Below, piece after piece: positions 2,118 through 2,325 of a stretch of 4,433 nt of DNA. This stretch comes from a virus (taxonomy: Duplodnaviria; Heunggongvirae; Uroviricota; Caudoviricetes): IMG/VR virus record IMGVR_UViG_2541047441_000013, positions 1 through 4,433 of that record. One strand, written 5' to 3'. Each line of letters opens with the position of its first letter. Positions within the stretch are counted from its first letter, which is position 1. The notes under the pieces are model-generated. The model had not been told where the DNA came from. It did no database searches and saw only the letters and a list, made by a program, of their open reading frames with translations. Both the position numbers and the translations under genes were made by a program.

Positions 2118-2315
2118 ATGCTGAAACAGCAGGATATGACAGAAACCGCCAGAGTTGTGTTTGATGAATTAAGCGTCACCGAACCGGCGACGGTCGGGGA
2201 GATTGCGCAGAATACGTACCTTTCACGCGAGCGCTGCCAGTTAATACTGACCCAGCTGGTTATGGCGGGTCTGGCAGACTATCAGTTCGGTTGTTACAGA
2301 CGCCTTCAGTCCTGA
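2118..2315 (+). CDS. Small hypothetical protein (65 aa), putative winged-helix DNA-binding protein (FaeA/PapI-like pattern)
   Basis: ORF track 2118-2315. AAGGG (2104-2108) lies 9 nt upstream of the ATG. Pattern ...TVGEIAQNTYLSRERCQLILTQLVMAGLA resembles the helix-turn-helix plus wing layout of small FaeA/PapI-type regulators (by eye, unverified). Stop codon is embedded in a strong terminator hairpin. Confidence 0.55.
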   Translation: MLKQQDMTETARVVFDELSVTEPATVGEIAQNTYLSRERCQLILTQLVMAGLADYQFGCYRRLQS

Positions 2316-2325
2316 AGGCTTTTTT
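2302..2325 (+). terminator. Intrinsic terminator overlapping the stop codon of the 65-aa ORF
   Basis: GCCTTCAG (2302-2309), TC, CTGAAGGC (2312-2319) gives a perfect 8-bp inverted repeat (effective stem 6-7 bp), followed by TTTTTT (2320-2325) then ATTTG. Confidence 0.7.

Follow-up and report, generated by a model that had tools for sequence, protein, structure and literature searches.

What does a 65-amino-acid (aa) protein do between the late promoter and a DNA methyltransferase gene of a lambdoid prophage, and why does its stop codon lie within a hairpin? These questions are raised by a stretch of viral DNA of 4,433 nucleotides (nt) (Caudoviricetes; IMG/VR record IMGVR_UViG_2541047441_000013, positions 1 to 4,433), which was analysed at its full length and is referred to here as the window. 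An earlier note, made from the sequence alone, had singled out the open reading frame (ORF) at 2118-2315, here called ORF65, as a putative winged-helix regulator of one of its neighbours, and had given its coordinates, its Shine-Dalgarno sequence and its 65 codons correctly throughout. The best overall explanation of the data, for which confidence falls a little short of even, is that ORF65, the hairpin across its stop codon (T2) and the structured leader of the following mRNA form a cassette that controls a methylase of the M.EcoGII type. The order of the cassette is late promoter pR', T1, ORF65, T2, a 136-nt leader and the methylase, followed by tRNAs, Shiga toxin (Stx) genes if present, and lysis genes. 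In the window, these elements are as follows.

1912 to 1946, + strand: late promoter pR' of the Q933 type, placed by homology
1973 to 1995, + strand: T1, the first hairpin after pR' (terminator scan and fold)
2056 to 2093, + strand: bipartite upstream motif, recognised by conservation
2104 to 2108, + strand: Shine-Dalgarno-like AAGGG (from the sequence; AAGG/GGA is kept at the same place in orthologues)
2118 to 2315, + strand: ORF65, encoding a 65-aa stand-alone protein with a predicted winged helix (phrog_331)
2302 to 2329, + strand: T2, hairpin 2302-2319 with U-rich tract 2320-2329 (terminator scan, fold and arm covariation)
2333 to 2494, + strand: structured leader of the methylase mRNA (alignment folds; no Rfam family)
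2419 to 2494, + strand: long-range helix 2419-2429 / 2483-2494, helix 3 of the alignment fold
2495 to 3553, + strand: non-specific N6-adenine DNA methyltransferase of the M.EcoGII family (N6_N4, PF01555)

ORF65 runs from an ATG at 2118 to a TGA at 2313-2315, with AAGGG at 2104-2108 preceding the ATG by 9 nt and an in-frame TAA at 2109-2111. The frame, the start and the N-terminal MLKQQDMT are identical across about 100 fetched ORF65 loci. ORF65 is under strong purifying selection: across genera, the majority fraction is 0.67 at codon position 3 against 0.91 and 0.92 at positions 1 and 2, and the Nei-Gojobori ratio of nonsynonymous to synonymous substitution (dN/dS) reaches a maximum of 0.23 in 80 pairs, synonymous sites being saturated between genera. 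The median dN/dS is 0.076, so that the protein-level conservation in related prophages on which the earlier note had made its proposal depend is present. That ORF65 is a real gene encoding a winged helix can be regarded as close to certain. DNA of the ORF65 region was found in 2284 of 5426 complete Escherichia coli genomes, with a maximum of 8 copies per genome, and relatives of the protein occur in Shigella, Salmonella, Klebsiella, Citrobacter, Kluyvera, Buttiauxella, Mangrovibacter, Mixta and others, as well as in the phages phiP27, SfV (orf47, 'unknown'), mEp460, cdtI, Citrobacter phiNP and many Stx2 phages. The gene is already, if loosely, annotated, and its fold is ordinary. Database versions of 94-106 aa were rejected as over-extended calls, because the TAA at 2109-2111 closes the frame in the window and the conserved protein begins at MLKQQ; codon 2 shows synonymous changes. 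In one locus (L020) ORF65 is shortened by a premature stop. A weak hairpin at the start codon (TGCTG-AAA-CAGCA, 2119-2131; -4.6 kcal/mol) loses its outer pairs when residue 5 varies. E. coli O157:H7 PV15-279 (L001:6079-6275) carries a near-identical ORF65 with a 1-nt deletion, annotated as a frameshifted pseudogene, and the methylase is absent there.

The methylase of the window is identical to M.EcoGII at 325 of 350 residues (93%), as compared with the machine-read text of the supplement of PMC11551740, which contains a few errors. It is also 94% identical to the methylase of phage 1720a-02, an enzyme called 'very similar' to M.EcoGII (PMC5778455). M.EcoGII methylates adenine in any context, is unexpressed in the lysogen and is deleterious when expressed constitutively (PMC5778455). 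ORF65 and this methylase are found paired whichever of the two is taken as the starting point, and at identities as low as about 30%. Of 20 cross-genus loci, 19 have 148-155 nt between the ORF65 stop codon and the methylase ATG (the other, L020, has 286 nt), the relatives P0171 and P0147, with about 30% identity, also lie between Q and an N6_N4 methylase, and a divergent ORF65 subfamily occupies the same place in Stx2c phages. Seen from the methylase, the ORF is upstream in 73 of 74 IMG/VR methylase loci. SfV has the cassette in bare form (Q, terminator, orf47, orf48, terminator, S, R, Rz), and the set at other annotated or gene-called loci comprises Q, the methylase, tRNAs/stx and holin/lysis genes. 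It is highly likely that ORF65 and the methylase constitute a functional cassette. The earlier note had proposed a regulator of either neighbour, a protease or an orphan methylase, and Pfam found both of them beside ORF65. Synteny strongly supports the link with the methylase, but not that with the protease, which accompanies ORF65 in only 3 of 102 loci and is for that reason considered unrelated to it. No restriction endonuclease was found among the neighbours by annotation or Pfam, either in the window or at the other annotated or gene-called loci. The likeness to controller proteins of restriction-modification systems that had been drawn fails on this point and on fold and family, with no HTH_3 match.

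The hairpin across the stop codon has the stem-loop GCCTTCA/GTCC/TGAAGGC at 2302-2319, followed by TTTTTTATTT at 2320-2329, and is reported by the terminator scan. It folds at -10.5 kcal/mol (z = -3.6), and none of 200 shuffles folds as well. With a stem of 7 bp, including four G-C pairs, and the tract U6AUUU, T2 has in the window the GC-rich stem-loop and U-run of an intrinsic terminator. The stop codon of ORF65 forms the first three bases of the 3' arm, and sequence and terminator scan alike bear out the earlier observation that codon 2313-2315 lies inside a terminator stem; only the word 'strong' was mildly overstated for a hairpin of this size. A stop-codon-spanning hairpin is present in 21 of the 23 lineages examined, its 5' arm always falling within the last 3-4 codons. 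The arms differ between lineages yet stay complementary (GCCTTCA/TGAAGGC, GCCTCCA/TGGGGGC, CTGCCA/TGGCAG, CCGCCAG/CTGGTGG, CTCCGC/GCGGAG); the hairpin is selected beyond what chance would give, and its arms covary. As the 5' arm lies within the last codons, a ribosome finishing ORF65 should block the folding of T2, and the conserved overlap therefore predicts that T2 works only without a closely following ribosome translating ORF65. In E. coli, the ribosome represses terminators located a few bp past a translated gene almost completely (PMC4824070). T2, about 380 nt from the pR' start, is the terminator that comes next. It is reasonably likely to act as an intrinsic-terminator-like gate between ORF65 and the methylase, and it probably helps to keep the methylase off in lysogens.

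Beyond T2 lies the leader of the methylase mRNA, a spacer that measures 134-137 nt in 43 other distinct copies (e.g. L005:4210-4345) and 165 nt in the window, the difference being due to a 29-nt insert at 2368-2396. Pairwise identity of the leader between genera is 0.83, compared with 0.86 at codon positions 1 and 2 and 0.49 at position 3. RNAalifold predicted 32 pairs in the leader, with 98.1% of cells paired. Five pairs carry a change in both partners, whereas shuffles gave 1.0 +/- 0.7 such pairs (0 of 500) and slid controls 0-2, and in L111 GGCTGG/CCAGCC has become GGCCAG/CTGGCC, i.e. two compensatory pairs. Since most positions are invariant, this covariation support is real but modest. 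The helix 2419-2429 / 2483-2494 pairs the 12 nt immediately before the methylase ATG, where there is no Shine-Dalgarno sequence. This start-masking helix corresponds to alignment columns 60-70 with 126-137, and its closing pair, 60:137, is A-U twelve times, G-C eight times and G-U four times. The palindrome at 2444-2462, which had been proposed as a site for the regulator, turns out to lie inside this leader, and the alignment folds pair its inner bases only (GCTTT/AAAGC in one, two G-C pairs in the other). Rfam (E <= 1) gave no match within 1832-2494, its only matches being the tRNAs, STnc100 and AgvB/AsxR further downstream. On these alignments, the leader is a candidate for a new cis-regulatory RNA of M.EcoGII-family methylase genes, without an Rfam family.

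The 29-nt insert (2368-2396) lies in the apical part of the leader's first hairpin, and none of the 43 other distinct copies has it. As far as 2394 its sequence agrees exactly with the arrangement in PV15-279 (L001), where a 237-aa helix-turn-helix gene replaces the methylase, and among the 5426 complete E. coli genomes none matches the insert junction in one piece. Its appearance is that of a recombination joint; an assembly artefact is less likely. The Chi sequence (GCTGGTGG) occurs at 2344-2351 (+), 3187-3194 (-) and 3193-3200 (+), three times against 0.18 expected, a number that 0 of 200 shuffles reach. The Chi site in the leader is conserved from E. coli to Mixta and is also present in the distant L109, and the second and third form a back-to-back palindrome, CCACCAGCTGGTGG, within the methylase gene. 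In E. coli copies lacking the methylase, homology ends directly after GCTGGTGGGTG, with three different junction types. Together, the Chi sites and junctions suggest a Chi-associated recombination hotspot that shapes the mosaic.

The 65-aa protein itself was modelled by AlphaFold2 from a 19-sequence alignment, with a predicted local distance difference test (pLDDT) of 89.1 and a predicted template-modelling score (pTM) of 0.76, two of five models being confident. Helices are predicted at residues 4-17, 26-33 and 37-49 and strands at 53-56 and 59-62, which amounts to a minimal winged helix. The model has the three-helix bundle and beta-hairpin wing (H1-b1-H2-H3-b2-W-b3) that define domains of the winged helix-turn-helix (wHTH) type. 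At the level of structure prediction the winged-helix fold is settled, yet the ligand is not. The top Foldseek matches are non-DNA-binding N-terminal winged-helix dimerisation domains of S-adenosylmethionine-dependent methyltransferases (RedM, PigF, DsyB), at an E of only about 1e-3. Methyltransferase N-terminal winged helices are also weakly recovered by sequence search, and the closest matches among regulators are the winged helices of IclR, MarR and ArsR.

In PHROGs the protein belongs to phrog_331 (function unknown; E 3e-37). Its Pfam matches are all sub-threshold winged helices, namely TrmB (PF01978; 17.6 bits against a cut-off of 25.6, E 0.0034), DprA_WH and MarR_2. The names given in the sources are only 'TrmB family regulator', 'hypothetical' and 'lipoprotein', and by the family threshold for sequence matches the first of these is not justified. 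At E <= 1, Pfam gave no match to FaeA/PapI (PF04703), HTH_3 or Com, with the caveat that the HMMER filters could conceal very weak matches. Of the FaeA/PapI-like winged helix that had been read from the sequence, the winged helix is upheld by the structure prediction that had been called for, but the relationship to FaeA/PapI is not. There was no match among the NCBIfam models, nothing under E 0.1 in a profile search against PDB sequences, only generic winged helices in a BFVD fold search and only a chance-level match in PADLOC. The family hidden Markov model found only 85 relatives among 1.84 billion representatives, all short, and none of them links it to a characterised family. Family members have lengths of 63-74 aa, and the ORF65 product has no dimerisation or ligand domain. 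The invariant core consists of helix 3 (C40-x-L-x-L-T-Q) and G51, and C40 and C59 are the only cysteines conserved in the family. Searches of the literature on TrmB regulators in prophages and on SfV orf47/orf48, and of a comparative paper on pR', gave no statement on the function of ORF65.

ORF65 is the first gene after pR'. In the window, homology places the -35 element of pR' at TTTACG (1912-1917), the -10 element at TATGCT (1934-1939) and the transcription start at about A1946, with 1912-1994 sharing 75% identity with the sequence that directly follows Q in Sakai Sp5. In Sp5, the pR' start mapped by differential RNA sequencing (dRNA-seq) and the tR' 3' end mapped by Term-seq are 258 nt apart (PMC7547250), a distance that fits exactly on the Sp5 sequence (A4346..4603 of L103) if it is counted from the A in TAAGAG to the point where the T-run of the second terminator ends. 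The data of PMC7547250 cover Sp5 and Sp15, both of which are prophages without ORF65. As the Sp5 homology puts the -35 element there, the palindrome at 1912-1925, for which a role as operator of the ORF65 product had been envisaged, is instead the -35 region of a Q933-type pR'. At least three types of pR' cassette precede the same ORF module: a lambda-like type with AACGATGGG, a TTGCAA...CATATT type and the Q933 type. T1 (CCCGC/GCGGG with a U6 run; -9.0 kcal/mol) is reported by the terminator scan, and a GC hairpin with a T-run is found at its position in most of 19 aligned loci, with differing stems and with no T-run >= 5 in L011 and L015. The T1 homologue in Sp5 occupies +27..+49 of a transcript that reaches +258, i.e. 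it is read through in Sp5 according to the mapping of PMC7547250, and T1 is probably leaky. ORF65 is bracketed by two hairpin terminators, as the description of it as a stand-alone unit had implied, but it is located inside the leader of the late operon. In the Sp5/933W type, only the 3' end of the methylase (...AAMALGRRAIGVELESGRFEQTVREVQN...) is left between tR' and ileZ (L103:4604-4770); judging from its sequence, this type seems to have arisen by a deletion that removed ORF65 and the greater part of the methylase.

The motif upstream of ORF65 consists of CTTGCTG (2056-2062), a variable spacer of 10 nt (2063-2072) and CAAGAGTTATTGGTGTGTCAC (2073-2093), the second block reading (C)AGAGTTATCTGTATGTCAC across loci. 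The motif recurs with unchanged spacing in 18 of the 19 aligned loci, as well as in the distant L109 (about 30% identity). Its geometry is promoter-like, with a -35 element TTGCTG, 17 bp, a -10 element TATTGG/TATCTG, a CA start at about 2092 and a 25-nt leader with a Shine-Dalgarno sequence. L002 has lost the first block, and a deletion has removed one of the blocks in Stx2a_1447-type phages. RNAalifold predicted no pairs in the 5' leader of ORF65. A pairing of CTTGCTG (2056-2062) with CAGCAGG (codons 4-6) was considered and rejected as unsupported; 14 of the 19 loci have complementary sequences, but none shows a compensatory change, and the block is missing from L002. The motif was also compared by eye with a minus-strand sigma-70 promoter and with sites for sigma-E, sigma-32, sigma-54, CRP, LexA and IHF, none of which fits.

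How the cassette would work can be outlined as follows. In the lysogen, constitutive transcripts from pR' and/or from the weak promoter-like motif (2056-2093) would reach ORF65 and end at T2, which would act as an effective gate of the tR' type and keep the toxic methylase silent. Upon induction, Q-modified RNA polymerase would pass T2. Translation of ORF65 may be coupled to read-through into the methylase, with the ribosome holding T2 open, and the ORF65 product would be a nucleic-acid-binding controller dedicated to the methylase, its likeliest target being the leader RNA or the upstream DNA motif. A controller role is favoured because the small gene, the gate, the masked start and the late toxic enzyme parallel the com-mom operon of phage Mu. 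By this analogy, direct control of methylase expression by the ORF65 product is offered as a tentative proposal, held with clearly less than even confidence.

Several observations weigh against this scheme. Outside E. coli the U-tract after T2 is weak or absent, reading UUUCUGCUGU in most lineages and AUAACUGCUG in L010 and L014. In L109, the most distant lineage, the ORF and the methylase are both present, but there is no stop-codon hairpin, the spacer measures only 73 nt and the Shine-Dalgarno sequence is an ordinary one, and about 20% of E. coli copies retain ORF65 and T2 with the methylase lost or replaced. The protein has an isoelectric point (pI) of 4.8 and a net charge of -2 in the window and is acidic to neutral in most lineages, which is unusual for a nucleic-acid binder of 65 aa. 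Moreover, P0147 has not retained R37, R39 and Q41, the residues likely to make contacts, although its leader is nearly identical. The upstream motif has only 6 of 12 matches to the sigma-70 consensus and is not reported by the promoter scan. M.EcoGII is active in vivo and in vitro when cloned alone (PMC5778455), and the ORF65 product is for that reason not needed for catalysis. Literature and databases yielded no functional statement or experiment on the ORF65 product.

ORF65 might instead be an ordinary small 'moron' that has a promoter and a terminator of its own, is expressed from the prophage and encodes a DNA-binding regulator of host or other phage genes, its adjacency to the methylase reflecting only a shared insertion history. 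A winged helix closest to those of the IclR, MarR and ArsR regulators, with a promoter-like motif upstream and a terminator downstream, would suit such a gene, as would the many E. coli prophages in which the ORF and T2 are intact without the methylase. Neutral linkage, however, should have decayed, and the methylase is paired with ORF65 at fixed spacing across genera, to about 30% identity; the protein is acidic and lacks a dimerisation element, and the upstream motif matches sigma-70 poorly and is partly deleted in Stx2a_1447-type phages. This explanation is considered unlikely. The acidic pI speaks for a winged helix that binds protein, as an inhibitor, chaperone or targeting factor for the methylase (or for RNA polymerase/Q), and so do the best Foldseek matches, to the non-DNA-binding winged helices of RedM, PigF and DsyB, and the strict co-occurrence with the methylase. 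Such a module is given rather little credence, as are the particular forms it might take, restraining the non-specific methylase or directing it to replicating phage DNA: M.EcoGII works alone (PMC5778455), and ORF65 persists without the methylase in about 20% of E. coli copies.

It might also be the translation of ORF65 that matters and not its product, with an attenuator ribosome melting T2 and with AGA/ATA codons and phage tRNAs as possible tuning elements. The position of the 5' arm of T2 within the last 3-4 codons in 21 of 23 lineages speaks for such an attenuator, ribosomes do repress stop-adjacent terminators in E. coli (PMC4824070), and mccA offers a precedent (PMC4231749). Yet selection acts on the amino-acid sequence as such, as the dN/dS of about 0.08 and the confident fold of the domain show, so that attenuation can only be an added layer; in addition, the AGA codons are not conserved and L109 has no overlap of hairpin and stop codon. 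As a full account, this one is improbable. ORF65 has AGA at codons 12 and 61 and one ATA, at codon 43 (2244-2246). Both AGA codons occur together only in the E. coli/E. albertii clade, with AGA/AGG at codon 12 in three other lineages and at codon 61 in none, and the methylase gene contains no AGA, with ATA used for 4 of its 14 Ile codons. For AGA the host has a tRNA of its own. The count of two AGA codons in 65 was right, but the dependence on tRNA-Arg(UCU) that had been built on it is not supported, the codons being lineage-specific. The rare codon ATA recurs at Ile43 in 13 of the 20 lineages, and further downstream the operon contains a tRNA whose anticodon, CAT, reads AUA in tRNA-Ile of this type; this counts in favour of tuning, but the persistence of ATA is a curiosity and not evidence of tRNA dependence. 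The reading of the earlier note itself, a FaeA/PapI-like or 'C protein' regulator of protease or methylase that depends on the phage tRNA-Arg(UCU), can point to the winged helix, the position upstream of the methylase and the two AGA codons. It is largely refuted by the family scans and synteny, with no PF04703 or HTH_3 match at E <= 1, no restriction enzyme gene, the protease in 3 of 102 loci and AGA codons confined to certain lineages, and it must be regarded as very improbable.

The window as a whole is the late-regulatory region of a lambdoid prophage, as judged from gene calls, Pfam and a tRNA scan. Outside the cassette it contains the following features.

129 to 500: RusA (gene call and family scan)
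481 to 861: Q antiterminator (PF06530), a Q933-family protein
1007 or 1013 to 1831: CPBP/Rce1-like membrane protease (gene call and Pfam)
3594 to 3669, + strand: tRNA with anticodon CAT, annotated as tRNA-Ile in related prophages (ARAGORN, Rfam tRNA)
3750 to 3826, + strand: tRNA-Arg(TCT) (ARAGORN, Rfam tRNA)
3936 to 4144, + strand: small RNA (sRNA) STnc100 (Rfam, 175 bits)
4146 to 4205, - strand: anti-GcvB sRNA AgvB (Rfam, 56.6 bits, just at threshold; AsxR below threshold)

The protease gene, with a G+C content of 38%, sits between Q and its cognate pR' (862-1946). Given the assignment of pR' to about 1912-1946, it is an insertion between the two. In Sp5, pR' directly follows Q, and in Stx2a_1447 two reverse-strand genes occupy the same gap, which appears to be a moron insertion site separating Q from pR'. 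ARAGORN and Rfam both find two tRNAs here, compared with three (ileZ-argN-argO) in related prophages, and the 80-nt gap at 3670-3749 may hold a degenerate remnant of argN.

M.EcoGII is a widely used enzyme for non-specific N6-methyladenine (m6A) labelling, and its relatives are found in thousands of prophages of E. coli, Shigella, Salmonella and Klebsiella. What is new here is that ORF65 has a fixed partner behind pR', a methylase of the M.EcoGII type, that the stop-codon hairpin covaries and that the leader is structured; no description of that partnership, of the hairpin or of the leader was found in the searchable literature. A small protein, a translation-sensitive terminator and a structured leader would, if the proposal is true, explain how a toxic enzyme is silenced and switched on, and would represent a second, independent answer to the problem that Mu solves with Com. 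In its most ambitious and still speculative form, the proposal describes a three-part control module of lambdoid prophages, made up of the ORF65 protein, a translation-gated terminator and a start-masking 136-nt leader RNA. It is equally doubtful, at present, that a protein unrelated to Com and encoded in the pR' leader transcript binds the leader or the motif and so sets methylase translation. In several Stx2 phage types the cassette sits between the late promoter and stx2, so that basal toxin and late-gene read-through could be influenced by T2 and by the translation of ORF65; that the same gate operates between pR' and stx in Stx2a_1447-type, Stx2c and phiP27 phages is conceivable, with a low probability. 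Should ORF65 prove to be merely another small prophage regulator, its annotation would still be improved.

Among characterised winged-helix proteins, the TrmB, MarR, IclR and ArsR factors are the source of the NCBI name 'TrmB family transcriptional regulator'. TrmB proteins carry an additional C-terminal effector/dimerisation domain. The ORF65 product, in comparison with TrmB (PF01978), falls below the gathering threshold, lacks such a domain, is acidic and belongs to a narrow family. PapI and FaeA are small (about 70-aa) stand-alone winged helices of enterobacteria with a thematic link to adenine methylation. They resemble the ORF65 product in being small and stand-alone, but differ in context, a fimbrial operon as opposed to the leader of a phage late operon. 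Zalpha domains are defined by an Asn and a Tyr of helix 3 and a Trp of the wing, which contact Z-form nucleic acid. The ORF65 product is 16% identical to these Z-DNA/Z-RNA-binding domains, and in a by-eye alignment it has Gln41, Thr45 and Tyr60 at the defining positions, the key Tyr being absent. The C proteins of restriction-modification systems likewise are encoded by a small regulator gene beside a DNA methyltransferase gene and are presumed to time or limit expression, but they bind C-boxes as helix-turn-helix dimers of the Xre type and serve mainly to time the restriction enzyme, whereas the ORF65 product is a predicted winged helix and its methylase an orphan with no endonuclease.

With respect to the gate, lambda pR'-tR' (6S RNA) and StxS of Stx phages occupy the same genomic place and share the design of a constitutive promoter and a terminator gating late genes, but StxS is a non-coding sRNA, while the stretch from pR' to T2 encodes a conserved protein. 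In mccA-mccB, termination after a short ORF is controlled by the ribosome (PMC4231749), and both this system and engineered tR2 constructs (PMC4824070) resemble T2 in having a terminator hairpin within reach of a finishing ribosome; the mccA peptide, however, has 7 aa and is itself a substrate, whereas ORF65 encodes a folded domain. The com-mom operon of Mu, and the com-like genes that precede non-specific adenine methylases (Hin1523, Nme1821, Hia5) in Mu-like prophages, belong to modification systems whose enzyme shields the DNA of the phage against many restriction systems (PMC3299994, PMC6483171). Com, a zinc finger with four cysteines, exerts translational control over mom. The ORF65 product, a predicted winged helix with two conserved cysteines, is no homologue of it, the spacer here is 150 nt with a terminator-like hairpin, and the host phages are lambdoid with Q antitermination. 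The likeness is one of architecture only, namely a tiny gene directly upstream of a late, harmful DNA-modification gene whose start is masked in the mRNA.

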